The notes: generated from the sequence alone by a model not told the origin. DNA of 64,000 nucleotides from a virus (IMGVR_UViG_3300009008_000022:17459-81458); one strand, 5' to 3'. Numbered from the stretch's first letter, positions 6,813 to 64,000 are shown. Numbers and translations are program-made.

Positions 6813-6831
6813 CCAACCGAAAGAGGGCGCC

Positions 6832-7252: not shown

Positions 7253-7296
7253 AGCGTCGTCCTTTTTCAACAGCTTGCCGTTGCAGCGGGGCGGTG

Positions 7297-8022: not shown

Positions 8023-8027
8023 CCTCC

Positions 8028-38067: not shown

Positions 38068-38110
38068 GGAGCTGGATCGCGCATGGGCTACCCTGTTTCG
38101 CGTAGGTGGT

Positions 38111-38381: not shown

Positions 38382-41300
38382 ATGCCTATTTGGCTAAAAC
38401 AACCGCCGCAGCCCGCGCCGATAATCCAGGCGAACAGCGCCTTGCTCACCATGCGCCAGGCAGAGCGCACGCCACCGGCCAGCCGCGGTGAGTTTGGGAA
38501 CATGAAGCAGGCCAACAGTGTGCGTGACGTGCTGGACGGGCTAGGTCTGGGGATGGATCTTGAGCGCGCCCTGGGCGAGCGCGTTGAGCAATGGCTGGCC
38601 TGTCGTACCCAGGTTGAGATCATGGAGCGCGCACGGCACGATCTGGCCGGAGCTGTGGCGGATCCCTACGTCCGGCGCGAGATCATGGGCCGCGCCATGA
38701 ACCTGTGGCTGCGCACCGTGCAACCGGCCGAGCGGGCGCCGAACCATGGGACCATGATCATCAAGGCCCAGGCTGCGCAGTTCGCACCGGACAACCGGCG
38801 GCGGTGGGGAGGTGGGAAGCCCTACGGCGGGCAACGTCCGCCCTTGAGCCGGACGGTGACAGGACAGCCGAGCGGTGGAGGGTGGGAGGAAGTAAAGAAC
38901 AGCGCCCATGGAGGTTGGCGCAGGCCGGACGGCCGCGGTGGTTACGAATATTGGTATCCAGGGCAGGGCGGCCCCGGTGGCGGCCCTGGGGGAGCTGGGG
39001 GCGAAGCCAAGCCTCACCCGAATGAGGGCCAGGGCAAGGGCGATCCAAAGCCACCTGGCGTAAGGTGGGCACCTGTGCCGCACCATGCGCCGGGAACATT
39101 CCGCCGGCCAGCCGAAGATCATTCCGCGGGCGGGCCAGCTCACGCTTCACGCATGGAGGCGCAAGGGATTGCCTCAGAGCCGCACCGCGGGGCAGCGGAG
39201 GGGGAGAGTCAAGGCAACGAAACCCAGGGCGACAAGCCCGCAGAATCAGGAAAGGACTCCGGCATCCCGCCAGAGCTGCAAGCGCAGCTCGCCCAGGCCA
39301 TTGAAGCCTACGGTATGGACGCGGTGAAAAAGGGGCTGGGGAGCGTGACAGAGGCCGCGGCGAAGGCGGCCGATGAGCAGTACCAGGCCAAGGCCGCGGA
39401 GCTGGGGAAACATGAGACAGTCCAGGCCGCGGTAAAAGAGCACTTCGGCGGCAAGCTGCGCAGCAAGCCGAGCGAGCAAGAGGTTAAACAGCTCGCAAAA
39501 AAGCTGGGCAACGATCCCGAGATCCGCAAGCTGGCTGAAACGGCCATGCAGGGCGCCGATGGTGCGGTGGTGGACGCGATAGCCCAGGCCGCGGTGGACG
39601 CAGCCCCCAAGGCCGATCCTGGCCTGGCTAAAAAGCTCCTGGTAGGCGCCAAGGTCGCAGCCAAGGCAGCTCTGCCGAGCGCGGCGTTTGGTTTCGTGGA
39701 CAACTTCATGCTGTACCTGGCAGGGGCGAGCATTGACACCATGATCGCAGCCATGGGTTTCGGCGCCGCGGTGGTGGCCGGCCTGGGCAACGCAATCAGT
39801 GATTCAGTGGGCGAAGCCGTGGCTGACAAGATGGAGCGTTTCCTCGACAAACTGCCAGGGCTGAAAGAGGACGAGAAGGATGTTCTGACCCCGGAGCAGC
39901 GTCAGAAGATCGAGAGCAAGGCTAAGGTCGCGGGCGTGTTTGTTGGCGCGATCATCGGCATGTGCCCGTTGCTGGTAGGGATCGGGTTTGGGGGAGCGCC
40001 AGCCGCCAAGTCAGAACGGCTGGTATTTGCCGGCGGCCGGTTGCTGCTCAAGAGCGAGCCGGACCCGTTGCCCGCCCTGGACGGAGCGCCCGAGCTGGTG
40101 TTTGTCATGGTGGACACCGAGCCGCGCGACGGCCTGTTTCTGGTCAAGGGAGCGGGGCACAAGTACCTCAGACGGATCCGCAACCCGAGCCCACCGCCCA
40201 ACTGGCGCTATCTGTACAAGTACCCAACCAGGAAGGGTTTGGTACACGACGATCACCTCGTTGAAGGGGCGAAATTCAAGGGCAAACACGGCGACCTGGA
40301 GGGCCACTTTGAAGTAACCGGAGTGGTCAAAAAGAAGGGCAAGCACGTTATCGCGCTGAAGCACGACGAGTCCGGCAAAACGATCTACGTTCACCGCAAG
40401 GACATTCAGGGAATGCTCACCCGCTATCACAAGGATGCGGGCACGCATAAGGAGCCGCGCAAGCGCAAGCCCAGGGCGCCCAGGGCGCCGGCTAAGAGCT
40501 TTCCCGAGCCGGACAAGAGCAAGGCAACCGAGGGCACCTACAGCGGCGAGCTGCCGAAGATCGGGCTCAGGGACACTCACGCATGGGAGGAGATGAAAGG
40601 CTTTGCTGACGATGAGCAAGCCGCGCGGGAATTGCTGGCGAGCTGGGACACGCACGGCCAGGAGTACGGCCTGATACCGCAGCCCAACGGGGTGATGATT
40701 ATGCGCCGGACAGCTCGCACCGGCAGCAAGGCGGTGAAAGAGGGCGCGTCTACCGTGGTGGCGTTCAAGGGCGACGGCAAGATAGAGCGCCAGCAAGGCG
40801 AGTACATGGTCATGGAAATGAGCGAGCTGATCCCGAGCCACAAGCCAGGGAGCTTTGCGCCGGACCCGCGCTACCCCGATGGTGTTCAGGAGCGCGTTTA
40901 CCACGACGATCCAAACGAGCGCGCGAAGGTGGAGGAGATCGCCCGCGGCCTGGATCCTTTTTTCGTGATCAACACCAATAACGACGGCGTTGGAGGGCCG
41001 CCCGTGATCACTCCAGACGGGATCGTGCTAGGCGGCAACGGTCGCACCATGGGGATCATGACGGCATACACGCACTACCCGGAGAGCGGGCAGAAGTACA
41101 AGGATCACCTGGCAAGCCAGGCCAGCGACTTTGGTTTCAGCTCGCATGACATTCAGGGCATGAGCCAGCCGGTGCTAGTGCGGCGCGTGGCGGTGGACGC
41201 GAATAACACGCAGAAGGCTCGCATGTGGGCGCGCGTGCTGAATGAGCCGTTGACGCAGGGCATGGACCCGCGCACCGAGGAAGTTGCGGTCGCGAAGAAC

Positions 41301-42332
41301 CACATGAACGAGCGCGTGATCGCCGCCCTGGTGGCCGGCATGAAAGAGGGCGAGACAATCCACGCCTTTTTGAGCGGGGCACATAGCCGTGAGTTTGTGG
41401 ACGGGTTGAAGCTGGCCGGCATCATCGACCGGTACAACGAAAGCAAGTATCGCCACGTTGACGCCACGGCCGGAGCTGACAAGCAAGGGCTGCTTAACGA
41501 GGAAGGGATCATGAGGATCCAGCGCGTGCTAATCGCCTCGCTTATCCCTGATTCTCGGCTGCTCAAGCGTATGCCGAAAAACATGATCACAGCTCTGGCC
41601 GGCAGCGTGCCGCACCTGTACCGCGCCCAGGCCGCCGGTTGGGATCTGTCCGGCGCGCTGGCCGCGGCGGCGGACGCCTGGCTTGACGCGAAACACCGGG
41701 AGTACAAGACAGCCGCCGCCTACCTCAAGGCCACCGAAATGGACTACGGCGACGGCGATAACAAGATGGCGCCGTTGATGAAAGATCAGGCCGCGGAGTT
41801 TATGTTTCGGATCCTGTTCAAACCGCAGGCCACCGCGACGGCCACAAAGATGCGCGAGCTGGCAAACCGCGCGGGAATGGCGAAGCAAGCCCGAGAGGAG
41901 CAGGACAGCGGCGGCATGTTTGCCATGCTGGGCGAAACCGCGGACGCGCCAGAGCCGGAGAAGTTGACCGACGCGCTTGATACGATCTGGGGTATCACGG
42001 CAGAGGGGCGCGGCCGGCGCCAGGCGGAAAAGGACGCGGCCAGGGCGGAACAGCTCAAGGCGTACCAGGCGCGAGCCGATGAAATGGGAATGCACGTCGA
42101 GCAGTACGAGGCTTACCAGGATTGGGCCGCGGAGGACAAGAAGTGGCAGGACCGGCAGAACAAGCGCAAGCGCAAGGCGCGCAAGCCGGACCCGAGGCCG
42201 GAGAAGCCGCCGATCATCCAAGGGCTGAGAGTGGGACACCGGGAGCACAACATGGGGCTATTCCGCGAGCACGATGCGAAGCGACGGCGCGAGCAGATGA
42301 AAGACGACAGCCGGGAGCGGGAGGCAAGTTAA
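38382..42332 (+). CDS. Giant modular protein A: GW/EYWYP module, TMEM65-like membrane domain, HKY..WRY module, DdrB-like ParB domain
   Basis: FGFVDN...AGLGNAISD..G...LTPEQ...GAIIGMCPL (39669-39980); PSH...Q.R.Y...GPPVI..DGIVLGGNGRT (about 40800-41700). Confidence 0.8.
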   Translation: MPIWLKQPPQPAPIIQANSALLTMRQAERTPPASRGEFGNMKQANSVRDVLDGLGLGMDLERALGERVEQWLACRTQVEIMERARHDLAGAVADPYVRREIMGRAMNLWLRTVQPAERAPNHGTMIIKAQAAQFAPDNRRRWGGGKPYGGQRPPLSRTVTGQPSGGGWEEVKNSAHGGWRRPDGRGGYEYWYPGQGGPGGGPGGAGGEAKPHPNEGQGKGDPKPPGVRWAPVPHHAPGTFRRPAEDHSAGGPAHASRMEAQGIASEPHRGAAEGESQGNETQGDKPAESGKDSGIPPELQAQLAQAIEAYGMDAVKKGLGSVTEAAAKAADEQYQAKAAELGKHETVQAAVKEHFGGKLRSKPSEQEVKQLAKKLGNDPEIRKLAETAMQGADGAVVDAIAQAAVDAAPKADPGLAKKLLVGAKVAAKAALPSAAFGFVDNFMLYLAGASIDTMIAAMGFGAAVVAGLGNAISDSVGEAVADKMERFLDKLPGLKEDEKDVLTPEQRQKIESKAKVAGVFVGAIIGMCPLLVGIGFGGAPAAKSERLVFAGGRLLLKSEPDPLPALDGAPELVFVMVDTEPRDGLFLVKGAGHKYLRRIRNPSPPPNWRYLYKYPTRKGLVHDDHLVEGAKFKGKHGDLEGHFEVTGVVKKKGKHVIALKHDESGKTIYVHRKDIQGMLTRYHKDAGTHKEPRKRKPRAPRAPAKSFPEPDKSKATEGTYSGELPKIGLRDTHAWEEMKGFADDEQAARELLASWDTHGQEYGLIPQPNGVMIMRRTARTGSKAVKEGASTVVAFKGDGKIERQQGEYMVMEMSELIPSHKPGSFAPDPRYPDGVQERVYHDDPNERAKVEEIARGLDPFFVINTNNDGVGGPPVITPDGIVLGGNGRTMGIMTAYTHYPESGQKYKDHLASQASDFGFSSHDIQGMSQPVLVRRVAVDANNTQKARMWARVLNEPLTQGMDPRTEEVAVAKNHMNERVIAALVAGMKEGETIHAFLSGAHSREFVDGLKLAGIIDRYNESKYRHVDATAGADKQGLLNEEGIMRIQRVLIASLIPDSRLLKRMPKNMITALAGSVPHLYRAQAAGWDLSGALAAAADAWLDAKHREYKTAAAYLKATEMDYGDGDNKMAPLMKDQAAEFMFRILFKPQATATATKMRELANRAGMAKQAREEQDSGGMFAMLGETADAPEPEKLTDALDTIWGITAEGRGRRQAEKDAARAEQLKAYQARADEMGMHVEQYEAYQDWAAEDKKWQDRQNKRKRKARKPDPRPEKPPIIQGLRVGHREHNMGLFREHDAKRRREQMKDDSREREAS

Positions 42333-44725
42333 TGGCGAAGGCAGAGAAGAAGGGCGCCGCCGCGGCCGGAGTCCGGTACGTCATGGACTGCCTGCTGGTG
42401 GAGGCCAAATTCGAGGTACAAGGGGCGGTGCACCTGTCCATGATTAAGGACCGGAGCGTGAGCGTTAAAACCTCAGAGATCGTCGCGCGCCTCAAGAAGT
42501 TCGCCCAGGCCAAGCTGGAGCTGGACCCGCGGTTTCGCGCCGGTTGGGGCAGCTCGCCAGTGACCGATGAGCAGCTACACGCAATCGTCGGGCCGTTGGT
42601 TGAAATGCGGGCCGGAAAGATCGTCAAGGGCGGTGAGCGGATCTGGTGCCAGGGAGGGCCAGCTCCGCGCCCTTTCGTTAAGGGCGAGCGGCCGTCCGGC
42701 GCAGGCTGGCAGGCCGTACCAAATACCAAATTTGGCGGGTACAGGCGCCGCGGCAAGGGCGGCAAGTGGGAGTATTGGTATCCCGAAAAGCACGCCAAGT
42801 TGGGCCATGGGTTTGAAGCTGAGCATGTGGAGCTGCGCGAAAAGCGCGACCGCGTTGCGGCCGACATAGAGCGCCGCGGCCTGGGGGTGGAGTACGAAAC
42901 GAGCCCAGGCCGGTATCTGGTTGTCATGCCGGACCCGTCGCACGCGGGCAAGGTCCGCACGCAGAGCTACGATGAGCACGGATTCTCTGGGCACCGCACC
43001 TATGACGATCTGCCAGCTCTGGCCGCGGACGTTGCCAAGTGGGAGTACAACGGGATCAAGCCAGCTCAGGCCGGCACGCTAGACAAGCTCGCCCAGGGCG
43101 AGCCATGGCGCCAGGCCGCCCTTCACCAGCAAGCGTTAAGGGAGATCGAAAGCCTGGAGAGGCAGGGGCAGGACGTGAGCGAGCTACACGCGGTCCTAGC
43201 TCGCAAAGGGTCAGAGGCGCTACTGGCGCACCTGGGCAAGTCGGAGGCGCCGCGGTTGCTCGCCCTGGGCGACCGGTTGGTCAAGGCTGGCGTTGGAGCG
43301 GAGCGGCAACAGATCATGTTTGCAGCTCGCCAGCGCAAGCAGTACCCGCCAGGTTACAAGCCGGAGCACAAGGTCAAGGGAAAGACGGTCAAGGTCCACA
43401 CTAACGGCTGGCAGGCTATCCCCAAGGGGCACAAGGGAGGCTATCGGCGCCGGACCCGCGGCGGGTGGGAGTACTGGTATCCAGACCATCACGCGCGGCC
43501 TGGGCTACACGCACCGAGCGTGGAGCCGCACGGCGGCACGTTGGCCGAAGCGGTGGAGCTGCGCGAAAAGCACGGCGTGCCGATCCATGTAAGCTGTGGC
43601 GCTGGGGTGGACAGTACCGGTTTGCTGGTAGGCATGTATCAGCAGGGGATCCGGCCGGATGCGGTTGTGTTTGCGGACGTGGGGAACGAAAACCCGCGCA
43701 CTTATATGTTCCTTCCCCACCTGGACGCATGGCTGAGATCGGTTGGCTTCCCGCCCCTAACCGTGGTGCGAAACAAGCCGACCGTTAGCGCCTCAGAAAT
43801 GGTGAGAGAGGCGCGCGGAAAGACTTACGCCACGTTGGAACAGAACGTGGTGCTGCATGAAACCCTGCCGTCAATCTCACTGGCCGGTGGCCGCGGTTGC
43901 AGCCAGAAGTGGAAACACCAGCCTCAAGAAGCCTGGGCAAACCAGCGCGAGGATTGCCAGTCGGCATGGGAGCAGGGCTTCAAGGTCACGAAGCTAATCG
44001 GCTACAGCTCTGACCCGGCGGACAAGCGCCGGCCGGATATGCCGGACGATGAGAAGTATCACTATCAGTACCCGTTGCGTGAATGGGGGTGGGATCGGGA
44101 GCGGTGCAAGAAAGAGATCGCCGCGGCCGGTATGCCCGTACCAGTCAAGAGCGCGTGCTGGTTTTGCACAGCGACCAAGCCGCACGAGCTGCGCCGCATA
44201 GTGAGCGAGTACCCCGACATCGGCCGCCGGATAATCCAGATGGAGGCCGCCGCGGAGGACAACCTACGCAAGATCCGCGGCCTGTGGGGCACACCGGTGA
44301 AGGGGGCCAGGGGCGCGCTAAAGAAGCCGGGAACAATGGCAGAGTGGATCATCGGGGAGGAGTTGCTGCCGGAGTTTAAGGGCCAGGATATTGTTGACCC
44401 GTGGTGGCGCCAATCAGGCCAGGTGACGCCCGGTAACGAGCACTTCAAGGTGGCGGACGTGATGCACCTTGTAGACGCGCCACCGCCGCCGGTGAGCCCG
44501 CTTGAGGATCTAAGCGGCCTGGCTCCGGTGGACACCGACGAGCTGCGCGAGCAGAGCAAGGCGCGAAAGCGAGGTGGTGCGGTTCAGACCAGCTTGTTTA
44601 AGAGCGCGCCCAGGGCGACGATGAGGGACGGAGATCAAAAGTTCTGGGCAGCCATGGCATTGATCCAGGCGTTTGATCAATTCGACAGCATGGGCAAGGA
44701 CGGCAAGCGGCATGGATCTGAATGA
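42332..44725 (+). CDS. Modular protein B: two GW/EYWYP modules plus a PAPS-reductase-like PP-loop domain
   Basis: SCGAGVDS, FADVG.E, CSQKWK, IGY, YPLREWGW.R..C, PVKSACWFC. Start coupled by TAATG at 42332. Confidence 0.8.
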   Translation: MAKAEKKGAAAAGVRYVMDCLLVEAKFEVQGAVHLSMIKDRSVSVKTSEIVARLKKFAQAKLELDPRFRAGWGSSPVTDEQLHAIVGPLVEMRAGKIVKGGERIWCQGGPAPRPFVKGERPSGAGWQAVPNTKFGGYRRRGKGGKWEYWYPEKHAKLGHGFEAEHVELREKRDRVAADIERRGLGVEYETSPGRYLVVMPDPSHAGKVRTQSYDEHGFSGHRTYDDLPALAADVAKWEYNGIKPAQAGTLDKLAQGEPWRQAALHQQALREIESLERQGQDVSELHAVLARKGSEALLAHLGKSEAPRLLALGDRLVKAGVGAERQQIMFAARQRKQYPPGYKPEHKVKGKTVKVHTNGWQAIPKGHKGGYRRRTRGGWEYWYPDHHARPGLHAPSVEPHGGTLAEAVELREKHGVPIHVSCGAGVDSTGLLVGMYQQGIRPDAVVFADVGNENPRTYMFLPHLDAWLRSVGFPPLTVVRNKPTVSASEMVREARGKTYATLEQNVVLHETLPSISLAGGRGCSQKWKHQPQEAWANQREDCQSAWEQGFKVTKLIGYSSDPADKRRPDMPDDEKYHYQYPLREWGWDRERCKKEIAAAGMPVPVKSACWFCTATKPHELRRIVSEYPDIGRRIIQMEAAAEDNLRKIRGLWGTPVKGARGALKKPGTMAEWIIGEELLPEFKGQDIVDPWWRQSGQVTPGNEHFKVADVMHLVDAPPPPVSPLEDLSGLAPVDTDELREQSKARKRGGAVQTSLFKSAPRATMRDGDQKFWAAMALIQAFDQFDSMGKDGKRHGSE

Positions 44726-47700
44726 CCTGTTACAGCGAGGGTTGAGAAAGGCGGAACAGCTCGATCTGTTTGGGCCGGAGCAACTAACCTCAGACAGAGG
44801 GCCACGAGACACCGTGAAGCCGGCCACGCCGCGCCGAGTTGGTAAGCCAGGCCGCGGCAAGCGCCGCAAGAGCAAGCGCGTTATACCGCCGCACCAGGGC
44901 CACATGACGCCACCTGGCAAGGGTTGGCAGGCTATCCCGCGGGGCAAGAAGGGCGGTTTCAGACGCAAGGGCAGCAACGGCAAGTGGGAGTACTGGTATC
45001 CCAACAGGGGAATCACTCCCAGCCCGCACCATAAAGACATTCCCGACAGGCCCGATCCGGCGAAGGATCCGAAGGGCGCGCTGGCATGGTGGGGGATGCG
45101 CCTTTATGAAGGCACCGTCAACGACGAGGGGTTTTGGCAGGACCACCGGAGGACAACCGGAGCCAGGCCGCGGGTTTACAGCTTGAGTTGGGATTATGGC
45201 CGAATGAGCCTGGCCCTGTTTGATGCAGTCGAGGGCATACCTCAACAGCAAAGGGCCGCCATTTTGGAGCCGACGCGGGAGCGAGCGCACTTCCCCCGCG
45301 ATCAGTTCACCGACATGGCCGAAAGCTATCGCCGGTTGGAGGAATACCAAGTCGCGGTGCGATTGAATGCCGAGCGCCGGCCGGCCGCCCCCGTCGAGGA
45401 CGTTGACGCCGCGGTGGACAGCCTGCAAGGGGTGGAGCCGGAGTCCGCCCAGGGCGCCGACGTGCCGCACCTGGAAGTTGAGGAGTACGACGGCCGCGAG
45501 GGCGATCCAAACCACCTTACGCGCAAGGAAACCGGCCGCGTAACGCCGCAAAGCCTGGCTCACTTAAAGGGGGCCAGGAAAGAGCACGGCTACATGCGCT
45601 GGCACGACGGCAGCGCCATTGGAGCGAAGGATCCAGGGGAATACTTCGGCAGATATACCAGGGAAAAGTGGGAGGCGTTTGTTGCCGACATTAAAGCGCG
45701 CGGCGTTCAGGATCCGGTTTTCATCGTTAGGAACCCAGAGCCAGGCACGCGGCACGATCCGGCTGGAACGTGGGTGTATGAGGGCAATCACCGCATAGCC
45801 GCGGCATTGGAGGCGGGGGTTAAAACGATCCCGGTAGAGATCCGCTACTTCGGCCACACTGAGCGCGACGGCCAGGCTGCGCCAGGGTGGGATCGTATGC
45901 CCGAGAGTGAGCCCGCCCAGGGCGAGCCACACGAGCCGGGGCCGGATACGTTTCACGGCAAACTTACGGCGCTACGGGCCGAGGCTGAAAGGCTGGACTT
46001 GCCCACGGCCGCCAGGCTGCTTAACCCGGAAGGCTGGCCCACGGACGATGAGAAGTTGGGCAGCGTGCTAATGGACGCCACCGCGGAGCTGGGCGGGTTG
46101 CTAGTAGGGGAGGATACGCCGGACAACCGCCGCCGCCGTGAGCTGCTAATCGAGGGGATCAAGGTCTGGACCAAGGATGGCGAGTACGAGCCGATCACGT
46201 CCCTGCATACCAGCCGCGAGGATCTTCAACGGCTGGGGTTTAGGACCATTGCCAAGTTCACTGATCTGAAAAAGCTGGGCTACCGTATCGTTCAGTGGGC
46301 GCGCGTGGTGGGCGAGGTGTACGGCGACAACAAGGACATGGCCGGTTGGGAGATCGTTCACGAGTATGACCCGATGCACCCCGACGCGGGCAGCGGCGCA
46401 GGGCTGGCCGGCAAGCGTGATCACAAGACGGGTGACGGGTTGGGCTATTGGGAGGCTCCAGCGCCCGGTGATGCGCCAGGGATGAGCCCCGAGGCGGTGC
46501 GCTACACGGCGCCGGCCGGACCCGCGACAAGCAAGGTCCATGAGCTGTTGACGGGGGAAGCTACGCGCTTGACGTTGCCAGGCGTAGACATGAAGGGCAC
46601 CAGCGTGCGCAAGCGCGGTGTTAATCCGGCCGATGCAATGGACCGCGGAAGGGCAGAGCGGGACAAGGCCAGGCGGGCGCAGACCAGCCTGGGGTTTGAC
46701 TACTCCGGCGACAGCCCGCACCACCAGGCAGAGCGCGCCAGGGAGCTTAGTATGGGGGCGGCCTGGGCGATCCTTAACCCGGATTTTGAACATACCTCGA
46801 CCGACGTTAAGCGCGTCCGGCAGCAGCTCGCAGATGATGCGGTTGAGCTGGCGAAGCTACAGGCCAGCGAGCCGGATAGCGAGGCAACGCGCGAGCTGGC
46901 TGAAATGCAGAAGCTCCGGCGGGCCGCGTTGCGCACGGTGAAGCCCAAAGGCAAGCGAGCCGCGGCGCTGACAGCTCGTGGGGAGAGTAAAAAAAAAGAT
47001 CCGGCCGCCGGGATTTATGAGCGGGTAGCCCAGGCATCGGGAAGTTCCGCAGCTTGGATGGTGCAAAGCAAGGCCCGCGAGGTTGCTCATATGCAGCCTG
47101 GCGACCACTTTATGAAGCCAGGCGGGATTTACGCGACCGCGGCCAAGATCACGTCAACCCATGTGATCGATACCCTGGGCAAAAAGCACACGCTGGCGTC
47201 CCTGTTTGGGCTGAAGCTGAAGGATAAGGATCTGGTAACGCTGGCCCTGGCGGAAGGCGCCAAAGAGCCGCCGCCCAAGCGCGGACCAAACCCGGATTGG
47301 GTAGCCGGCTGGGAGCGCATGAAGCCAGGCGACAGCTTCACCTTGCCAGCCGATCCGCGAGGGCTGAGCTACCACGGGCCAGTGTTGGCCGGAGCGCGCG
47401 AGTACAAGGTTACAAGGCGGGTGGGAGATCGGACCTTTGAGGTGGAATTTCAGCACCCGGAAGGGCCAATAACCGAGGCCGAAGCCAGGGCGGCGCATGT
47501 AGACCACAAGGGGCGCCCGCGCGGGAACAGCGGCCTGGCCTACCATGGGCAGAAGTTCCGAGCTGAGATCAGCCGTTACCATGATGGATCGTGGGGCGTT
47601 GATCTCCTCGACCCTAACCCCACGTCTTACATTTCAGCTCACCCGGACGGCGGTGGAGCGGCGCCCACTGAGCAGAACAATGGAGGGCACGAGGGGATCG

Positions 47701-49601: not shown

Positions 49602-49628
49602 ACGGCCGCATGGAAGATCAACGAATAC

Positions 49629-52205: not shown

Positions 52206-55200
52206 GTGGGCCAGCAACAGCAACTTGGATTTGACTTTGGCGGCGAAAAAAAGCGCGTCAAGGTACTGAGCGCAGGCGGCGGCCTTGACTCCTGGGCAAT
52301 GTGGCTCAGGGCCAAGGCGCGCGGGGAGCTGCCGGATCTGGTTATTTTTGCGGACGTGGGAGATCCCGAGGGCAAGCACCCCGCGGAGTGGCCGAGCACC
52401 TACCAGCACTTGAGGGAGGTATTCCGGCCGGATGTTGAGGCGCAAGGCGTTGAGTTTAAGTGGCTGACCGCCGAGGACATACCCGTTCGATCCCACCGAA
52501 AGAGCTGCAAGAGTTGCGGGGAGCAGCACCCGGAGGGGTTTGACAGCCTGTATGCCTATCTCCGGCACATGCGAAACCTGCCAACTGGCTCGTCAAAAAT
52601 GTGCACCAGCGCGGGCAAGGTGGAGCGGATCGGCCAGTGGGTTGAGGACCGATACCCCGACGTAGACGAGATCGAAATGTGGATCGGGTACGGCGCAGAG
52701 GAAACCGGCCGCCTGAAGAAAAACAGGTACGCCCAGGGCCAGGGGCGGCGCGTCAACCGATACCCGTTGATTGAAGAAAAGCTCTGTCGGGAAAAAGAGC
52801 TGGTGATTGCCATGGCGAGCGGGCACCCCGTGCCGCGCAAGAGCGCGTGCGTTTACTGCCCGATGAGCAGCCGCGGTGACTTTCTCACGCTGCTTAAAGA
52901 GCAGCCCAAGATGTTCCAAATGACGCTGGACATGGAGGAAAACTCAAAGCTAACCGAAGCCCGACGCAAGCGATTGCGCTACTCCGGCACCGGCGAGCAT
53001 ATGCCGAACTTGCTTGAGTGGGTCACGAACACCGGCCGGTACGAATTTACGCCAACCGGACGCCGGACCAAGCCGTATATCTCCAGCCGAGACAAAGAGG
53101 ATTGCCCCTGTTGCGGGAACAAGAAAGCCAGCAAGGCGACAGGCTCAGACTACGCGCACGCTGGCACCGGCCGCGAGATCCCGGTTGACGTTACAGAGCT
53201 GGACGCGCCAGGGCACGTCATTGCGATCCATGTGGACAAAAAGACAGGCGAGCCATACGTCGATCACAAGCTCAATATCCCTTACATGGAGGAAGCCCAC
53301 GGCCCGATCACGCCGGAAACGCCGATCATAAACTACGGAACCAAGCCGATAGTGGGCCTGGAAACCACGTTTACGCCCCACATCCTGTACGTTGGCCCAC
53401 GGGGCGGCCGGTGGGCAGACCCGAAACACCGGATACATTGGGATCCGAAGGTGCACGGAACGGTGACAAGTCAAACCAGGCGGATAAAGAAAGCCGAGGT
53501 GATGCTCAAGGGCGGCAAGTTTCCAATCGGGACAATCCGCACCTGGCGGGACGGCAAGCGGTATAGAAAGGTCAGAGAGGGCCAGTGGCAAGAGGTAGCG
53601 CCAGCTCGCCAGGCACAGCAGCTCGATCTGTTTGCGGCCATGGATTCGCGCGTTACCGAAAAGGACCGCGAGCCGATTTGCAGCCGGCCGCCGCCGGTCA
53701 GTGTGCCACCGGAGATCAAAGACGCCCTGGACCGCGGCGGATACCTGATTATCAACAGCTCCGGCGGCAAGGACTCGCACGCGCTGACCTACGCCCTGGC
53801 GACCTGTCCCGAGCTGGCGGCCTACAAGGACCGCATGATCGTCTATCACGCGGACCTGGGCAGGGCCGAGTGGCCGGGAGCTGGTGCCAAGGCAGAGGAG
53901 ATCGCCAAGCAGTTCGGGTTGCCGTTCGTGAAGGTCAAGCGGGACGCGAGTATCAACCGGGAGACAGGCAAGCGGGAGGTGTGGGAAGGCGACATGCTAA
54001 CCCACATGGAGGAGCGGGCAGCCTGGCCTAGCATGACAACGCGAATTTGCACGTCCGCCTTAAAGACAGGCCCGATCTGGAAAGCCCTACGGCGCCGGTT
54101 TTCCAAGGAAGGCGTGCCGATTGTTTCCGCCCTGGGCGTGAGAAGGCAAGAGGGCGAAGGCGACAAGGTAAACGCGGGCAGCCGGTGGTTTGCAGAGGAG
54201 TGGCACCAGGGCGGCGACTTTGGAACAAAATCAGTCAAGGAGCCGGTGCGCCTTGAGGTGCGCGAGGTATCTCACGAGCTGGCGCCCTGGCCTAGCCCGA
54301 GCAAAAAGGATCTCCGCGCGGTGAAGCGGGGGACAGTAAACCGGTCTGTCAAGCGGGAAGCCTACGAATGGAATCCCCTTGTGGATTGGGATCTGTCGCA
54401 CGTTTGGGGGGCCACGCGCGAGTCCGGCGTGGATCGGCATTACGCCTACGATCTGGGGTCCAGCCGGTTGAGCTGCTTGTGGTGTCCGTTGTCCAGCCAG
54501 GCGGACAAGGTAGCCGCAGCCAAGGCCCACCCGGAGATATTGCGCCAGTGGCTTGACGCTGAGAACAAAATGCGCGCCACGCATGAGCAGCGCCGAGGAT
54601 TTTGGGCAGAGCACATAGACCGCGGCCAGGTTGAGGGCGGCATGGAAGTAACAGAGCCGAAAGACGGCGGTGTGCCCCTGTATGCGTTCGACGCGGCCAG
54701 AATGAGCCAGGCCGAGATCGTGGATATGAAGCGCAACGGGGGGAAGTACAGCAAGAAGCGCGGGACCGTCGAGATCCCCAAGCGATACCTCAAGCCGTTT
54801 CTGGAGTACGGCACGAAGGGCAACCAGGGCGAGAGCTTGCTTGCCTTAATGGCCCGGTTAGGCGTCACGCTGGAGAAGGCAGCCAGCGATCCGGCATTCG
54901 TGCGAGAGTTGGTCAAGCGAGCACGCGAGCACGGCCGCCAGATGGACCGCTACCAGCTCGCAGTCGAGCGGGTGATAGAGGTTAAGGACCGCGTTGCAAG
55001 GGCCAACGGCGCCACCAGAGAGCGCCTGTTGCGGCTGTATCAGCGGGAGATGGATCAGCTTGCCGGCATTGGCGCGCAGCTCAAGGGCTCGCACCCGTTC
55101 CCCTCGTCCGGCGAGGGCATAGCCAGGGAGCAGGCCGCGCGTAAGTCGCTGCTGGACCGCGGCCAGGCCGTAGCAGCTCGCATGGAGGAACGGATGGAGA

Positions 55201-57104: not shown

Positions 57105-60100
57105 GCAAGATAGACGATCTGGTAGCACGCGGGGAGGAACGGCTGAGCAAGATGATGCAGCTTGGCTTGTTTGACAACCTGGGCGGATCGTCGGGAGCTG
57201 GGGAGCATTTGCCCGACTCCCATACCAGCAAGCCGAAGCGCGAAGCGCGCCACCAGGGCGAAACCAAGCCGGACAAGCCGAAGCGCCCGCCAGGGCCGGA
57301 CCTGAGCACGATTCACGAGGTTGACGCCCACCGCGACAGCGCGCAGCAACACCGCGCGCACGCGCACCGCGCCAAGCTATCCGGTGACGCGGAGCTGTCA
57401 GACCTTCACCGCGCCGCGGCATTTCGGGCGGATCTCGTGGCAACGTACCTGGACGCTGGCAAGCCGGCCGCGGAGGTTGAAACCGCCAAGCAATCCGTTG
57501 CGGAGGCGGTAGACACCATCGGCCGGTTAGAGGCGAGCCGTAAAGCCGAGGCCGAGCATGAGCGCCAGCGCCAGCACCGCGAGAAGCAGATCAGCGGCGC
57601 CAGGGGGCACGCTTCTGCTCTGGTCAGCGCCGGCAAGGCCACGCCGGAGGGGCTGCGCGTGCTGGCCCGTGGAATGGAGGATAGGGGCTGGAAACACGCC
57701 GCGAAGGAATACCACCGCGCCGCAGACCAGTTGCAAGGCGCGCAGGCTACGGTGAGCCAGGCGCAGCTCGCAACAATGCTGGACGAGGTTACTGAGCGCC
57801 GGCCTGGCGGGCGGGTGGTTAAGCCAGGGACAACGCCGGAGCAAGCGGCGAAAGCTGCCGATGCCCTGGAGTCAATGCTGGACGCTAACCCGGTAGAGAA
57901 GCGCACAAGGGCGGACGGCAGCAAAAACTGGCAAGAGACAAACCAGCACGCCGTACTGCGAGTTATCGTTGAAAAGCTCAGGGAGCACGCAAGCCCAGGG
58001 CCAGAGGTCGCAGAGGCAGCCAAGCCGGCCGCGGCGCCAGCTCCGGCCAGCAAGCACCACGCTGGCGAGCCGCCCCCCGGTGGAGGTTGGCGCCGGACCA
58101 CGAAAGGGTGGGCCAGAGGCCGCGGCCAGCGTTACGAATGGAAGCCGGTGGAGTGGTGGAAAGAGGGAGAGGGGAAAGCCAAGCCAGCGGCCAAAAAGAA
58201 GCCCAAGCCACAGAGGGAGAGGCCCGATGTTCGACCCGAAGAAAATGATCAGCCCCGAGCCGCCCGAGCTGCCGGAGCACCTGAAGCTAAACCCGAGCCC
58301 GAGTCTGAGGTATCAGGTAGACGGCCTGGACGATCTGCCGGAGGACGAGCAACAGCAGATCCTAGCCATGATGCGGACGCCGGAGAAGCCGAGCACACCG
58401 CGCCCGACCTAGCCGCCCTGGAGGCCGGCGCCCAGGCGCAGCAAGGCAAGCGCCAGCCGACCGGCAAGAAAAGCGGCCCGTCTATCCAGCTTGAGGCGGA
58501 CCTGTTGCCGCCGATCCCAGATGAGGCGCGGATCAGGCCGGACATTGCACCGTTCCCTGTGCCGCAGGGGCCGATCAAGGATCTGTACCCGCACCAGCGA
58601 GAGGCCGCGGAGCGGATCCTGGCGAGCTGGCGCGAGCGGGACGGCTGCCTGATTGCCGATGAGGCCGGCCTGGGCAAGACGCTATCCGGCGTTGCCGCCA
58701 TGATGCAGCGCGGAGGGCGCCGGAACCTGATCGTGGTGCCTACCAAGGGCAAACGCGGCCTAATGCGCCAGTGGCAGGATGAAGGGCTGGCCCTGTACGG
58801 AGTCCGCGGCAAAGGGAAGGATGAGCTGGACCCGGAGATCGATGGAACATGGCTCATTGGCTACAATGATCTGTATGAATCCGTGGCCGCCGAGGATGAG
58901 TTTGACGACTGGCACGTCGTTGACACCGACGCGGTTGAGGAGATCCTGAATCGCTACACGCACCGCCGTGCGCAATGGTGGAGCGCCGGCCTGGCCGACA
59001 GGGCAGCCGAAGCGATCAAGGATGAGATCGAGTGGCAGGAATGGGGCACCCGCAAGAACAAAGAGGAGATCGCAGAGCTGCGCCGGAATTGGGCCGATGC
59101 GGTTGAGATCGCGAAGCGGATCGAAAAGCGTTACCAGGGGGATTACCCGGACGGTCTGCCACAGCGAGTCATGTTCCAGGGAATGTCAGAGCTGGCGACA
59201 GAGGTGCAAGAGGACCGTCGCGCAGCTCAGCGGGAGAAGCTGAAAGGAAAGCGGACGCGGCGGTTGCGCAAGGCTCTGTTTGACGGCCAATTTGACACGA
59301 TCTTGTTTGATGAGTGTCACGGCATGGTCAACCAGAAAACCACCACCGCCAAGGCGGGCAAGCTGCTACAGGACCAGGCCGGCAAGGTGCTTTACATGAG
59401 CGCCACGCCTTACACCTACATTCGGGACATGAGCTACCTCAAGCGCCTGGGGTTGTTTGAGCCGGAATTTAACGAGGACAAGAACAGGCTGGAAACCTCA
59501 GACGAGGCGTTTATCCGGTGGGTTGTTTCTCTGGGCGGCGAGCCGTCCGAGGGGTGGGTTGCAGACCCGAAAACGCCCAAGGCCAAGGTCGCGGTGGCGG
59601 CCAAGATGCACACCGAAGGGTCCAGAATCAAGCGCGTGACCAGCCTTGAAGGCACGCGATCCATGTTCCACATGATGCCGCAAGAATCTCTGTCGGAGGA
59701 CGCGCAGAAAACGCTGGAGATCGGCGGCAAGGTGTTTGGGATCATGGAGCGGTATTGGAGGAGCCTGGCCGGCGCGCACTACAAGAACTGGAGCCGGCAG
59801 TACTTGGAGACACAGAAGGTAGACGCCGCGGTTGCCATTGCGCGGCGCGAGCTGGAGAAAAACCCCAACGCTCAGATCGCGTTCTTCACCTCGTTCAAGG
59901 AATCGGACCACGGCCATATCCGCAACGCGCCGGACGGGATCCGGCGCCTGGCGGAACGGGCCGCAGAGGATCCCGAAAAGTACTTTTGGTTCGACCCCGC
60001 CCAGGCCGCGGAGGACATAGCCGAGATAGAGGCGCTGATACCGCAGCTCCCGCCCGTGCTGCGCGGGCCGGACGGTGAAAACGAGGCGATAGTTGACCGC

Positions 60101-63100
60101 CTGACCCGAGAGTTTGGAGGGCCGAAGAAGGTCGCTCAGATCCACGGCCGGACCAGCAAAAAGCCGGAGGTTGAACAGGCCCGTTACCAGAGCGGAGAGG
60201 CCAAGGTCGCGGTCTGCACCATGAGCAAGGGCGGCACCGGGATCAGCCTGCACGACAAGGTTGGCAATGCGCCGCGGATCCAGATCAACCTGTCCCTGCC
60301 CTGGACGGGCAATGAGTTTGATCAGGTTAAGGGCCGGTCGCACCGCCTGGGCAGCAAGAGCAACACAGACATTCACTGGATGGTGGGCGACCACCCGACC
60401 GAGCAGCACAACGCCGCGATTTGTGGCAAGCGCCTACAGGCCGCGGGCAGCCTCACGATTGGCAACCAGGATCTTGCCCAGGACAGCGCGCACCTGGCGG
60501 ACTTTGACGAGGGGGACGGCGCCGGCGCGGATCTGACCGACGATCCCGCCGAAGCCTATCGGATCTCGCACGGCACAGACCGAATGATCCGAGAGGGAGA
60601 GGGCACCGACGAAGGCAAGGAGCAGCGGTGGCACTTTCGGAAAGTGGCCGAGCGACACCGGGCAGGCGGCGACGTTGTTGGGGAGGTGACAGAGCACTTG
60701 GAAGCGCAGCGCAAGCGCAAGACAGAGCTGGAAGCGCGCCGAGCATCCGAGCAGCTAAAGCAGGCCGCCGGCATTAACACGCATTGGGATCCGACCGCGC
60801 ATGTTTGGGTATTGGATCGTAACTCGCTGAATTGGAGCCAGAGCGAAGCCCTGGATCGGTTTATCGCGCGCAAGACAACCAACGCGCGGAGCTTGTTTTA
60901 CCTGCATGAAACCCACATTGACGCCCACAGTATGCCCGCCCTGGCGAAGATCATGGAGGCGGACAAGCATCCGGTGGATATGCGGGACGTGGTGCAAAAA
61001 GCGGTGAAGGCAGAGCGCGCGATCATTGACACGATGCGCGGAGCCACCCGCAGGCGTGACATACGAATGGAGCCGGTAATTAACGGCGACGGGGATCTGG
61101 AGTTTCACCTGTCCGGCAACAGCTTTGCGTATCAGCACGGCATGGAGGCGGCCGGCGCCAGCCTGGTAGACATGGGCGACGGCGACGTGCGGCGCTGGAC
61201 GTGGGTTGTACCGGAGCAGGCCGCGGCCAACGTGATGGAAAATTTCGAGCGGGTTGACCAGGAGCGCGACTACCCGCACCGCTTGAACACCTACGGCCGC
61301 GCCAGGATCGATGAATACAGGGAGATGCACGGCATGGATAAGTCAGAACGGCTAGAGGCTCTGTTTGCGAGGGGCAACGCCTTGCGCAAGGGCGAGAGTC
61401 CTCCGAGTGGATTCACGCAGATCACGGGCAGCGCCAAGGGCGGCTGGCACAAGAAAGAGGGGAACCATTACGTCTACTGGTATCCCGGCCAGGGCGTTGT
61501 CAGTTCGCGCCACAGCAGCGACGTGCACGCGGATCACTCCAAATTGCCGGAGGGGTTTAACAAGATGCCCCTGGAGGACCGCGCGGAAATGACCGCGCAT
61601 TGGGATCACGTCCGGCAAAACCTGGCAGAGTACAAGCCGCGCACCTACCACGGCGATACGCAGGCGGCCGTGGTGGAACATCTGGAGGACATGCGCCGAG
61701 CTGGCAACCTCGTGCCGTCGAATGCTGCCCTGGCAAAGAAGATGATGCTCACGCAGCTCAAGCACGGCCGCGCCGCGGGGATCCCTGAGCCCGCCCTGGC
61801 GAAGCTCATGGAAGAAAACGTCCGCAAGCTCTGTATGCAAGAGGTGGAGAGCGTTGGGCGCACCCTGGGAGATCACGGCGTGCGCCACCTGGCGAAAAAC
61901 GCCGAGCAGACCGACCGGATCTTTGACGCGGTAGTCGCGGGAGGCGGCCAGATCACGCCCATGGAGCGGTTCATGGCCCATCAGGTGCACATCGATCACG
62001 ACATGGGCTACACCATCGGCGCGATTGCCAAGGGCGGGTTTGCCGTTGCGGACAAGTACCACCCGCAGGCCAGCGCCGTGCTGGTGAGGCAGCAGGCGGA
62101 CAAGTACAAGGCGCTGTTTGGCGACAAGTACCAGGCGTTTCACCAGGCCGTGCTAACCCACAGCCGCAGCGGCGTGGACTGGAAAAACGATCCGTTTACC
62201 AGCGCGATCCGGCTGGCCGATAACACTCACCTGTTTGCGGACAAACTGCCCGAGGTGTTGATGGACTCCCGCCTGGGCTCCGAGGTGATGGTAAAGATCA
62301 AGCTGGCCGCCGAGCTGATCCCGCCCACCGTGGAGGTGCGAAAAACCGACCCGAAAACCGGAAAGGTCAAGGTGAAAATGAAGCGCACCGAGCAAGATAA
62401 GGCGCGCTTTAATGCCCTGATTGGGAGCATTCGAGGCCAGATGCACGCCGCGGTGGACGGCAATTCGGAGCTGCCAAAGTCGATCAAGGCTGCGCTGAAA
62501 AAGGCCATCGGTGAGATCGGGGAGCTTACGCCCAAGTTTCTGGTGTCGCGCCTGGCGGGACGTGATCCACAGTTCCGGTTTGAGGGCGGCGACATGCACG
62601 TCACGATCCAGCAGAGCGCAGCTCGTGAAACCATCGGGCAAGTGTTTGGCGACGATCAGCCCGACAAGCAGTTCCGCAAACTGCTGGAGGACTACGACAC
62701 GAGCCCCGAATCGGCGTTTGACGCCAAGCCGCCGCCGCCGCATGTCCAGGTGGGCAAGGACGGCAACGGGCTGTTTTTCCAGTGGCAGAGCGGGGAGTCC
62801 GAAAACCAATCCCACCCCGTTGAACAGCGCCACCGGGAAGTGATGGAGCGCGTTAAGGGGGAGTTTGAAAGGGTCAAGGCCATGCCGGCGGGCAAGGCAA
62901 AGCAGGCCGCCCTGGACAAGTTCTTTGCGACGGACGTTGCCAAGGCGCTGCGCCAAATCTGGACGCTGATCAAGGCGGACAAGGCGCGCGAGGATGAGCA
63001 AGAGCAGGAGCCGCCCAAGGGCAAGGGCGAGGCCCCACCGGACAAGCCGGAGGGCGAGGAGCCGCCGCCAGAGGGCGAGGATGAACAGGATCCGCTGGCG

Positions 63101-63727
63101 TCAGAGGACGGCGAGCCTGACCAGGGCGAAGGGGAGGACGGCGGCGAAGGGGAGGCGGAAGGTACGCTTCACACCACGCCGGCCGATGCAGCGAAGCTCA
63201 TAGAGCGCCAGTTTCCACAGGTGAGCGTGCACGAAACAGCGGACGGTGAAGGGTTGCACCTGTACGGCCAGGGCGCCGATCAAGCGGTCCATATGATGCT
63301 GAAAGAGGGGTGGGCGGTGAGCCAGGGCAGCGACGGGTCCATGACCATCCGGCCGCCTGGCGCCACCATTCCAGAGCACGAGCGGTGGGATAACACGCAC
63401 CACCCGCACGCCCAGGACCAGGGGCCGGAGATGGAGGATGAACAGGAGCAAGGGCCGCCGAATGGACAGCCGCGGCCAGCGCCAGGTAGTATGGGCAAAA
63501 GCTACGCTACGGCGGATTGGCACCAGTCCAGAGCCGATTATCTGTCCAGGTTAGGCGGCGAGATGATGTTTAAGAGCGAATATCACGGGTTTGTGAGCCA
63601 GCTCGATCATCTTATTGGCGCCCACCGCAACGCCGCGGAACAGCTCGCCAACGGAAATAGCCGAGAGGCGCGGTACTCCAGTTTCCATGCGCTAACCCTG
63701 GACCGCAAAACCATTCGGAGCAAATGA
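57101..63727 (+). CDS. Giant modular protein F: Strawberry-notch-like SF2 helicase plus HD phosphohydrolase domain plus GW modules
   Basis: ADEAGLGKT, FDECH, MSATP, GGTGISLHD, QVKGRSHRLG (58580-60470); DHGVRH...HDMGY...H...H...LADN (61860-62240). Confidence 0.85.
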   Translation: MSKIDDLVARGEERLSKMMQLGLFDNLGGSSGAGEHLPDSHTSKPKREARHQGETKPDKPKRPPGPDLSTIHEVDAHRDSAQQHRAHAHRAKLSGDAELSDLHRAAAFRADLVATYLDAGKPAAEVETAKQSVAEAVDTIGRLEASRKAEAEHERQRQHREKQISGARGHASALVSAGKATPEGLRVLARGMEDRGWKHAAKEYHRAADQLQGAQATVSQAQLATMLDEVTERRPGGRVVKPGTTPEQAAKAADALESMLDANPVEKRTRADGSKNWQETNQHAVLRVIVEKLREHASPGPEVAEAAKPAAAPAPASKHHAGEPPPGGGWRRTTKGWARGRGQRYEWKPVEWWKEGEGKAKPAAKKKPKPQRERPDVRPEENDQPRAARAAGAPEAKPEPESEVSGRRPGRSAGGRATADPSHDADAGEAEHTAPDLAALEAGAQAQQGKRQPTGKKSGPSIQLEADLLPPIPDEARIRPDIAPFPVPQGPIKDLYPHQREAAERILASWRERDGCLIADEAGLGKTLSGVAAMMQRGGRRNLIVVPTKGKRGLMRQWQDEGLALYGVRGKGKDELDPEIDGTWLIGYNDLYESVAAEDEFDDWHVVDTDAVEEILNRYTHRRAQWWSAGLADRAAEAIKDEIEWQEWGTRKNKEEIAELRRNWADAVEIAKRIEKRYQGDYPDGLPQRVMFQGMSELATEVQEDRRAAQREKLKGKRTRRLRKALFDGQFDTILFDECHGMVNQKTTTAKAGKLLQDQAGKVLYMSATPYTYIRDMSYLKRLGLFEPEFNEDKNRLETSDEAFIRWVVSLGGEPSEGWVADPKTPKAKVAVAAKMHTEGSRIKRVTSLEGTRSMFHMMPQESLSEDAQKTLEIGGKVFGIMERYWRSLAGAHYKNWSRQYLETQKVDAAVAIARRELEKNPNAQIAFFTSFKESDHGHIRNAPDGIRRLAERAAEDPEKYFWFDPAQAAEDIAEIEALIPQLPPVLRGPDGENEAIVDRLTREFGGPKKVAQIHGRTSKKPEVEQARYQSGEAKVAVCTMSKGGTGISLHDKVGNAPRIQINLSLPWTGNEFDQVKGRSHRLGSKSNTDIHWMVGDHPTEQHNAAICGKRLQAAGSLTIGNQDLAQDSAHLADFDEGDGAGADLTDDPAEAYRISHGTDRMIREGEGTDEGKEQRWHFRKVAERHRAGGDVVGEVTEHLEAQRKRKTELEARRASEQLKQAAGINTHWDPTAHVWVLDRNSLNWSQSEALDRFIARKTTNARSLFYLHETHIDAHSMPALAKIMEADKHPVDMRDVVQKAVKAERAIIDTMRGATRRRDIRMEPVINGDGDLEFHLSGNSFAYQHGMEAAGASLVDMGDGDVRRWTWVVPEQAAANVMENFERVDQERDYPHRLNTYGRARIDEYREMHGMDKSERLEALFARGNALRKGESPPSGFTQITGSAKGGWHKKEGNHYVYWYPGQGVVSSRHSSDVHADHSKLPEGFNKMPLEDRAEMTAHWDHVRQNLAEYKPRTYHGDTQAAVVEHLEDMRRAGNLVPSNAALAKKMMLTQLKHGRAAGIPEPALAKLMEENVRKLCMQEVESVGRTLGDHGVRHLAKNAEQTDRIFDAVVAGGGQITPMERFMAHQVHIDHDMGYTIGAIAKGGFAVADKYHPQASAVLVRQQADKYKALFGDKYQAFHQAVLTHSRSGVDWKNDPFTSAIRLADNTHLFADKLPEVLMDSRLGSEVMVKIKLAAELIPPTVEVRKTDPKTGKVKVKMKRTEQDKARFNALIGSIRGQMHAAVDGNSELPKSIKAALKKAIGEIGELTPKFLVSRLAGRDPQFRFEGGDMHVTIQQSAARETIGQVFGDDQPDKQFRKLLEDYDTSPESAFDAKPPPPHVQVGKDGNGLFFQWQSGESENQSHPVEQRHREVMERVKGEFERVKAMPAGKAKQAALDKFFATDVAKALRQIWTLIKADKAREDEQEQEPPKGKGEAPPDKPEGEEPPPEGEDEQDPLASEDGEPDQGEGEDGGEGEAEGTLHTTPADAAKLIERQFPQVSVHETADGEGLHLYGQGADQAVHMMLKEGWAVSQGSDGSMTIRPPGATIPEHERWDNTHHPHAQDQGPEMEDEQEQGPPNGQPRPAPGSMGKSYATADWHQSRADYLSRLGGEMMFKSEYHGFVSQLDHLIGAHRNAAEQLANGNSREARYSSFHALTLDRKTIRSK

Positions 63728-64000
63728 TGAGCCACGAGCGACGGCGCGAGGAGCTGCTAGAGAAGGCGCGGCAAAACCGATCTGACAAGCAGCTCAGCCT
63801 GTTTGGGGTGGCCGCGGTAAACGAGGGGGAGACAGGCGACCTGTTTAGCCAGGGCGCCGGCCGCGGCCTGAGCGCGCCGAAGCCCAAAGCCAAGCCCAAG
63901 CCCAAGCCCAAAGCCGAGCCCAAGCCCAAAGCCGGAAAAATGACCGTCACCCTGGCGGCAGCTCCAAACCACGACTTTGGCGCCGGATCTCCAGAGGCCA
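63724..64000 (+). CDS. Next modular protein G (3'-partial)
   Basis: Coupled ATGATG start; LLEKA, KQLSLF, PKPKAK linker; open to the window end. Confidence 0.65.
   Translation, partial: MMSHERRREELLEKARQNRSDKQLSLFGVAAVNEGETGDLFSQGAGRGLSAPKPKAKPKPKPKAEPKPKAGKMTVTLAAAPNHDFGAGSPEA

Follow-up and report, generated by a model that had tools for sequence, protein, structure and literature searches.

Why would a phage encode, behind its terminase, a row of giant proteins whose enzyme domains are unrelated to one another, and what might make them a set? The question is raised by a linear viral contig of 81,458 bp (IMGVR_UViG_3300009008_000022), of which bases 17459-81458 were analysed (the window, 64,000 nt in all, from whose first letter positions are counted unless another contig is named). 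From 38382 to its end the window carries an array of giant genes which, judged by their diagnostic families, encode phage-type polyvalent proteins in a head-morphogenesis operon, a known kind. What appears, as far as checked, to be undescribed is a three-part adaptor common to the multi-gene array across a clade. This adaptor would stand before every cargo domain and combine up to three elements: a site h-x-K-[A/G/S], a peptide Q-x-[G/S]-L-F-G in a disordered P/A/K-rich linker, and a small beta-meander (the beta module), to which a second tag, GP[YF]IGPRGGKWAD..HTIPW, would be the alternative. The reading to which we incline, with some reserve, is that the array consists of effector fusions packaged with the head proteins, cut by the prohead protease and delivered at infection, with the tags as docking elements.

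The array follows the gene for the large terminase (terL) and an open reading frame (ORF) of 192 amino acids (aa), and comprises six complete ORFs (797-2208 aa) and one that is cut by the contig end, all on the + strand and together longer than 25 kb. Neighbouring ORFs overlap at four junctions (by 1, 14, 4 and 4 nt), abut at one and are 27 nt apart at one, in keeping with the at least seven tandem, mostly translationally coupled ORFs of a preliminary description made from the sequence alone. Independent contigs from two metagenome runs over 44001-64000 contain 0 indels, and the ORF breaks in the parts so covered are therefore not sequencing errors. The proteins and their parts are these:

38382(38349)..42332, + strand: polyvalent protein A (TMEM65 and ddrB-ParB profiles); beta module 38826-38978, TMEM65-like membrane domain 39666-39974, KSERL 40008-40022, ddrB-ParB 40785-41189
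42332..44725, + strand: polyvalent protein B (PAPS-reductase-like profile); beta modules 42668-42820 and 43385-43522, PAPS-reductase-like domain 43565-44278, C-terminal QTSLF 44585-44599
44712..49601, + strand: polyvalent protein C (ParB-like and DUF3560 profiles); N-terminal LRKAEQLDLFG 44757-44771, beta module 44895-45041, ParB-like domain 45654-45845, DUF3560 48198-48551
49629..52205, + strand: polyvalent protein D (N6-methyltransferase (MTase) profile); N6-MTase 50634-51155, KSERL 51144-51158, beta module 51204-51344, QASLF 51714-51728, C-terminal QGSLF 52146-52160
52206..57104, + strand: polyvalent protein E (two PAPS-reductase profile matches); N-terminal QLGFDF variant 52218-52235, first PAPS-reductase 52248-53126, second tag type GPRGGRWAD..H.I.W 53379-53465, QLDLF 53619-53633, second PAPS-reductase 53748-54488, divergent beta module 55323-55430, KPKPKP linker near 55780
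57101..63727, + strand: polyvalent protein F (Strawberry-notch helicase profiles, HD motifs); N-terminal QLGLF 57158-57172, beta module 58058-58186, Strawberry-notch helicase 58580-60508, KSERL 61340-61354, beta module 61397-61534, conserved HD-motif cargo 61523-62980
63724..64000, + strand: polyvalent protein G, cut by the contig end; N-terminal QLSLFG 63790-63804, GDLF, KPKPKP linker

Nearly all cargo domains named in the preliminary description have a profile match behind them: TMEM65 (E 3.7e-16) and ddrB-ParB (PF18763, E 3.9e-21) in A, ParB-like phrog_4715 (E 6.8e-7) and DUF3560 (E 2.7e-6) in C, the PAPS-reductase phrog_424 in B (1.2e-25) and, in two places, in E (8.8e-49), the MTase phrog_9133 (E 7.8e-19) in D, and the Strawberry-notch helicase families AAA_34 and Helicase_C_4 (E 8e-14 and 4e-11) in F. 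Its HD hydrolase in F survives as a set of conserved H/HD/D motifs (GDHG.RH, DHDMGY, RLADNTH) within a block shared by at least eight other proteins at 44-54% identity, and not as a family or structural assignment: a Pfam scan of the whole of F lists no HD family, and a PDB search with its C-terminal cargo gave no match. Unrelated effector domains stand together in one polypeptide in A (TMEM65 and ddrB-ParB), C (ParB-like and DUF3560) and F (Strawberry-notch helicase and HD-motif cargo); E has two PAPS-reductase domains, and B and D a single recognised domain each.

These proteins share a small set of tags. The first common element, the beta module, is a basic and aromatic stretch of ~35-40 aa with the consensus PPGxGW(Q)xIPxGxKGG(Y/F)RRRxGxGWEYWYP. 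All-against-all BLAST and a hidden Markov model recovered seven strong copies (independent E-values 5e-12 to 6e-24), one each in A, C and D and two each in B and F, and none outside the array in the six frames of the 81-kb contig; E adds a divergent copy together with the second tag type, GP(Y/F)IGPRGGKWAD..HTIPW. The W/Y/G-rich module singled out in the preliminary description is thus real and confined to the array. A profile of the seven copies, run against 1.84e9 representative proteins, matched 368 at E<=1e-3 and 60 at E<=1e-10; the matches are mostly giant (up to 3298 aa), carry one to six modules apiece and, where a source name is given, are all called 'hypothetical protein' and come from metagenomes or bins of metagenome-assembled genomes. 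Relatives of the phage (G001-G005, then G006; GC 48-67%) were drawn from IMG/VR with a degenerate DNA pattern for the module, and in relatives the second tag type occurs 14 times.

Pfam, searched at E<=5, holds no family for the module, and the ESM Atlas gave no usable match. AlphaFold, run with 26 natural copies, predicts a three-stranded beta-meander with a core confidence (pLDDT) of ~80, and of 80-90 in a second run. Against solved folds the best Foldseek E was 1.4 and the VIA-align Z at most 2.8, with a resemblance to single propeller blades, and the module profile found compositional matches only (E 0.05) among PDB sequences. A peptide-binding mini-domain of WW or SH3-like type, which we regard as no more than a lead, received no assignment from the fold searches.

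The second element is the peptide Q..LF, found seven times in the window's array where 0.53 are expected (~13-fold; 0 of 2000 shuffles as high), which bears out the QLxLF motif of the preliminary description. QLDLF occurs twice and QLGLF, QLSLF, QTSLF, QASLF and QGSLF once each. With the E variant QLGFDF counted, six of eight motifs are at most 50 aa away from an ORF end: Q..LF stands at most 25 residues from the N-terminus in C, F and G and at the C-terminal end in B and D, while in E the variant is N-terminal and the motif at residue 472 separates the two PAPS-reductase domains. When the gapped 4-of-5 patterns of the array are counted without bias, QL.LF and Q.SLF rank just below the module motifs and the KPKP linker. 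Across the 150 best module proteins (160 thousand residues) there are 79 Q..LF against 9.5 expected and 37 QL.LF against 0.7 (8- to 50-fold), and since Q stands at -2 in 27 of 33 GLFG and in 15 of 15 SLFG, it is truly conserved by selection. The extended consensus reads h-x-x-L-(L/I)-K-A-(E or R-K-P-x-P-G)-Q-(L/M)-(G/S)-L-F-G, followed by a P/A/K-rich linker and often, 6-36 residues on, by a beta module; a Q..LF lies within 60 aa upstream of 15% of modules and of 1.3% of random windows. Some copies form the last residues of a protein (P0020 ends ..QRTLF) or stand in tandem runs, and a docking peptide therefore fits better than a cleavage site.

The co-occurrence of a peptide and a small beta domain in the same proteins, often in several copies, invites the thought of a self-assembly network, in which Q..LFG peptides would bind the beta modules of other copies and hold the proteins together as an inner body or bolus at the portal, the tags having no role after injection. 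Peptides of GLFG type, when they lie in disordered linkers, show cohesion in other systems. Giant phages, moreover, hold a bolus of ejection proteins (PMC5694885). However, AlphaFold shows no contact between peptide and module in cis, only the 15% of modules just mentioned have a nearby Q..LF, and neither Foldseek, VIA-align nor the profile search of PDB sequences produced a structural precedent for the module, all of which makes such a network quite improbable.

A different partner for the peptide is suggested by its letters. Bacterial clamp-binding motifs have a consensus of the QLSLF/QLDLF type (PMC12309361), which the array peptide matches at Q1, L4 and F5, and transposases of mobile elements use a clamp-binding motif as well (PMC4549789). 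The Q-x-[GS]-L-F-G peptides could therefore be true beta-clamp-binding motifs that load the enzymes onto DNA-bound clamps, either the host DnaN after injection or the phage DnaN during replication, a possibility that is compatible with packaging and that we entertain only tentatively. The conserved Q agrees with it, as do a cargo that is nearly all DNA-acting and the position of the peptides, which stand at N- or C-termini or in linkers modelled at low confidence by AlphaFold, as clamp-binding motifs stand at termini or in disordered segments. A DnaN-like clamp is also encoded in the window:

26869..27978, + strand: DnaN-like sliding clamp, candidate Q..LF partner (phrog_947, E 1.2e-24, full length)

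G004 has a DnaN-like gene directly upstream of terL (L017, 11204-12328, - strand; phrog_947, E 2.2e-18), an unusual place for a replication gene, yet its partial array contains no Q..LF. DnaN occurs in two of six records (G000 and G004), and G006, which is 87% complete and has modules, lacks it, so that clamp docking is unproven. The array peptides also differ from the bacterial motif in their many copies per protein within head-operon genes, in the near-fixed G after F and in the conserved L-L-K-A before it, the last two not being known features of clamp motifs. None of the replication proteins of the contig has a clear motif; only an unannotated ORF ends in QGALF. PDB and Pfam searches gave no match for that ORF or for the phage DnaN. 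The early/replication block contains a 274-aa ORF (7297-8121, - strand) with a clamp-motif-like C-terminus, ..RDQGALFADDSST, and no family or PDB match. A further idea, that a DNA-bound clamp might carry cargo through the portal, was rejected by reasoning on size.

The third element is a matter of position. KSERL is present three times in the array, where ~0.013 copies are expected, and every copy stands at a cargo boundary; in D the MTase homology block stops at residue 501, directly before KSERL, which is where the relative P0015 ends. Across relatives, h-(x)-K-[AGS] is found within 14 residues upstream of the module at 50% of 204 copies against 10% of random windows, and it also directly precedes the GPRGGKW tag. 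Of the three recurring tags of the preliminary description, then, the module and QLxLF stand as described, and the third stands as the positional h-x-K-[AGS] and KSERL, not as the generic K-[S/A/G] dipeptide.

Do the tags belong to the cargo? Among 373 clustered starts of homology blocks, 31% fall between -15 and +70 aa from a module start, where random placement gives 11% (at most 15.5% over 300 trials); block ends lie near modules no more often than expected (10.5% versus 10.6%). It follows that the tag moves together with its downstream cargo. Homologous cargo blocks also recur at different positions in different proteins, at 32-54% identity, and the claim that the array is built from cassettes is upheld.

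The genomic setting ties these cassettes to the head operon. In G001, G002, G003, G004 and G006 the operon runs from terL to a ddrB-ParB polyvalent, further polyvalents, an HD-motif polyvalent and the portal, and thence to an InPase polyvalent, (a Sno-helicase polyvalent), the prohead protease, the scaffold and the major capsid protein (MCP); the order is taken from relatives with enough context, the adjacency of portal, protease, scaffold and MCP from G001, G002, G004 and G006. Portal, prohead protease and MCP genes, for which the preliminary description proposed to look downstream, thus accompany the arrays of relatives. The gene that comes first after terL in G002, G003 and G006 shares 34-37% identity with the ddrB-ParB region of A. 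A Pfam census of 34 module proteins lists SNF2, Strawberry-notch helicase, InPase, ddrB-ParB, LPD1, ART-PolyVal, TMEM65 (two more cases), Zeta toxin, N6-MTase, PAPS-reductase, SAM lyase and topoisomerase IB, and the polyvalent-class families PF18823, PF18796 and PF18760 are present in module-bearing relatives. In one polyvalent of G004 (L017, 1-1806, - strand) InPase is fused with a topoisomerase IB catalytic core of eukaryotic type (PF01028, E 5.9e-14) and with two beta modules, and the pairing of InPase with topoisomerase IB recurs in several metagenomic matches.

The same setting bears on the idea that the proteins are not packaged at all but act late in the cytoplasm as DNA-modification or anti-defence enzymes on replicating phage DNA, their place in the operon reflecting timing and the tags being linkers or solubility modules. 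Modification of phage DNA before it is packaged is indeed a possible task of the MTase, PAPS-reductase-like and ParB-like domains, promoter and terminator signals inside the array do not rise above chance, and packaging is itself something that we infer, together with cleavage, injection and the binding partner of the tags. This idea is nonetheless rather improbable, given a placement conserved in five contigs, with polyvalents flanking the portal and preceding the protease, the K motif that they have in common with MCP, scaffold and protease, and a TMEM65-like membrane domain that makes little sense in a DNA-modification enzyme.

It is this K motif that argues for processing with the head. 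In G006, [DE]L.K[AS] occurs ten times in the 8.2 thousand residues of head and array proteins against 0.85 expected from shuffling, and 0 times in the 22 thousand residues of the rest (Fisher 2e-6); six of these sites belong to polyvalents (LLDLIKAEQLS among them), three to the scaffold and one to the N-terminus of the MCP. Both G001 and G006 have the K motif at the N-terminal end of the MCP and in the scaffold, which carries several DL.K[AS] sites; G001 has it at the protease C-terminus too, where the G006 protease has VEKM. In these two relatives the protease C-terminus and the MCP N-terminus share a homologous segment of ~60 aa, L-[KR]-K-A-L..AGQ.IN.P..GEGFPLR.ESLE, with 51% identity between the G001 protease and the G006 MCP (L015 of G001, 5504-8790; G006, 83243-86681); it is probably a targeting or cleavage region. 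Pfam and PDB searches with the relatives' protease, MCP and scaffold gave no match. Because the K-[AS] motif is common to array, MCP N-terminus, scaffold and protease C-terminus in the relatives, cutting after K by the prohead protease has indirect but coherent support there. The protease processing proposed in the preliminary description thus gains a site motif shared with head proteins in relatives and loses the generic K-[SAG] enrichment in the window.

On the packaging reading, the proteins would be made late, with the head proteins, and incorporated into the prohead. The protease would then cut after the K of h-x-K-[AGS], as it may also cut capsid protein, scaffold and protease in the relatives, and LDLIKAEQLGLFG would be a sequence with such a putative cut site. 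The freed cargo units would retain peptide Q..LF and beta module, now N-terminal, exit with the DNA, and act on the incoming DNA (ParB-like, MTase, helicase, PAPS-reductase-like and HD-like units) or on the membrane (the TMEM65-like unit), the retained tags docking either within the head or on DNA or clamp in the host.

Several observations weigh against this reading. K-[S/A/G] dipeptides are no commoner in the window's array than chance predicts (149 versus 149.7 expected), so that the linker sites of the preliminary description fall as a generic enrichment, and [DE]L.K[AS] occurs there once against 0.78 expected; the regular expressions for the K motif were, besides, chosen after inspection of the data. 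Portal, protease, scaffold and MCP are not in the window, the contig being cut inside the array, and the argument for a protease site is therefore borrowed from relatives. Profile scans of A-G detected no zincin-like MPTase, the processing device proposed for polyvalent proteins. As to docking, the C-terminal and tandem copies of Q..LF point to no particular partner, and AlphaFold models of peptide plus module show no docking, with a peptide pLDDT below 50.

How far is such a system already known? The array proteins are assigned to the polyvalent class because of diagnostic families, ddrB-ParB in A and InPase, LPD1 and ART-PolyVal in relatives (PMC5512222); two of these, InPase and ddrB-ParB, are reported in phage-type polyvalent proteins only (PMC5512222). 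The likeness to polyvalent proteins drawn in the preliminary description is supported by these families and by the site in the head operon next to terL. The polyvalents of Iyer et al. 2017 (PMC5512222) are likewise giant fusions of unrelated effectors (ddrB-ParB, InPase, MTase, SNF2 or Strawberry-notch helicase, ART, LPDs), encoded beside portal-terminase genes and predicted to be packaged and delivered; P1 DdrB, as cited there, and polyvalent phi24B gp47 (bioRxiv 10.64898/2026.04.10.717836) are found in virions. Here, by contrast, at least seven genes form one array of more than 25 kb, such arrays bracketing the portal in relatives; a repeated adaptor (h-x-K-[AGS], Q-x-[GS]-L-F-G and the 35-aa module) is present that is in neither Pfam nor the text of that paper; no MPTase autoprocessing domain was found; and the cargo includes PAPS-reductase-like and TMEM65 domains not discussed there. 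The text of PMC5512222 mentions none of 'clamp', 'linker', 'tandem', 'PAPS' and 'TMEM65', which, with the lack of a Pfam match for the module, agrees with the initial impression that the shared tag organisation is undescribed.

The Dar antirestriction system of P1 (DarB, DdrB, DarA, Hdf) offers the same types of MTase-helicase protein and DdrB-type ParB protein. These enter the P1 head, undergo partial proteolysis and protect the incoming DNA after injection, much as is proposed for the array. In P1 the genes are spread over separate operons, DarA/Hdf and an N-terminal signal of DarB set the order of incorporation, no shared repeated tag is known, and sequence similarity is limited to the cargo domains. 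The proposed logic of a targeting element joined to a prohead-protease site resembles that of the T4 internal proteins and Alt (capsid-targeting sequence and gp21 cleavage) and of the phiKZ/SPN3US ejection proteins. In T4, however, the targeting peptide stands on the N-terminal side of the cut and is lost, while the tags described here follow the putative cut and would remain attached to the cargo, and the cleavage motif is LxE or AxE in the T4/phiKZ type, as against the putative h-x-K-[AGS].

The phage itself, uncultured and marine, is a myovirus by its gene content: genes for head-decoration, adaptor, tail-sheath and baseplate proteins lie at the start of the contig. CheckV puts the completeness of the contig at 61%, and no terminal repeat was found on its 81,458 bp. 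The window sequence is present in two marine-metagenome runs of the same study at a depth of ~5x; the sequencing runs that contain it are marine metagenome DNA only, with no RNA run among them. The window also encodes a replication module (SNF2-type helicase, replisome organiser, DnaC-like loader, RecT and the DnaN-like clamp) and an amidase. Its terL is at most 28% identical to those of cultured phages, and among 50,697 phage records neither megablast with the array DNA nor tblastn with the tag region found a match. A narrow degenerate DNA pattern for the module hit 37 loci in 185k prokaryote genomes, 0 with a true module, and gave no prophage host. Immediately before the array lie:

35627..37393, + strand: terL, large terminase, start of the head operon (phrog_38, E 5.6e-54; 51% identity to G006 terL)
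37398..37976, + strand: 192-aa ORF, no assigned function, array-linked (no Pfam or PHROG match)
38106-38142 and 38261-38331, unstranded: non-coding repeat pair directly upstream of the array (repeat search, D2 77%, D4 81%)

The 192-aa ORF shares 43% identity with an ORF within the G006 array and 47% with the C-terminal portion of an ORF that lies upstream of terL in G002. The preliminary description, which placed the array directly after terL and one structural gene, was right as to terL; the label 'structural' is unsupported, because this ORF matches no Pfam or PHROG family. The repeat pair is AT-richer, with the sequence TTTGCTTAACC...CTTAACTAGCA.CTTA and then GCAGATGCAGATGCA, and copies a segment within the replisome-organiser gene (16100-16165, 77% identity); it may be an origin/iteron-like or regulatory site at the head of the array. 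At its other end the contig stops in a KPKPKP-coding repeat (63876-63911) that is repeated at 55780 in E; metagenome contigs link the two repeats, and depth rises there from ~5 to 21-51. Such arrays probably fragment assemblies routinely, since both the window and the 98.8-kb G006 assembly break inside the array.

Arrays of this kind are probably under-counted because they break metagenome assemblies, and ~30% of the 81-kb contig is devoted to such effectors. How polyvalent and other ejected phage proteins are selected, cut and targeted is known chiefly from T4 and P1, and this lineage offers a sequence-defined, recurrent adaptor that is directly testable. The furthest-reaching version of the argument, which we consider unlikely, is that a clade of marine myoviruses uses a portable label (protease site, clamp peptide and basic beta module) that would load injected enzymes onto the host sliding clamp within seconds, the cargo including ParB-like, MTase, helicase, topoisomerase, PAPS-reductase-like and HD units and new cargo joining by recombination behind the label. 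If true, these would be the first virion-delivered proteins to hijack the sliding clamp, and the system a natural plug-and-play device for protein packaging and delivery. If the tags direct packaging, foreign proteins could be loaded into capsids; if they bind the clamp, they would give phages a new route to seize the DNA hub of the cell at entry.

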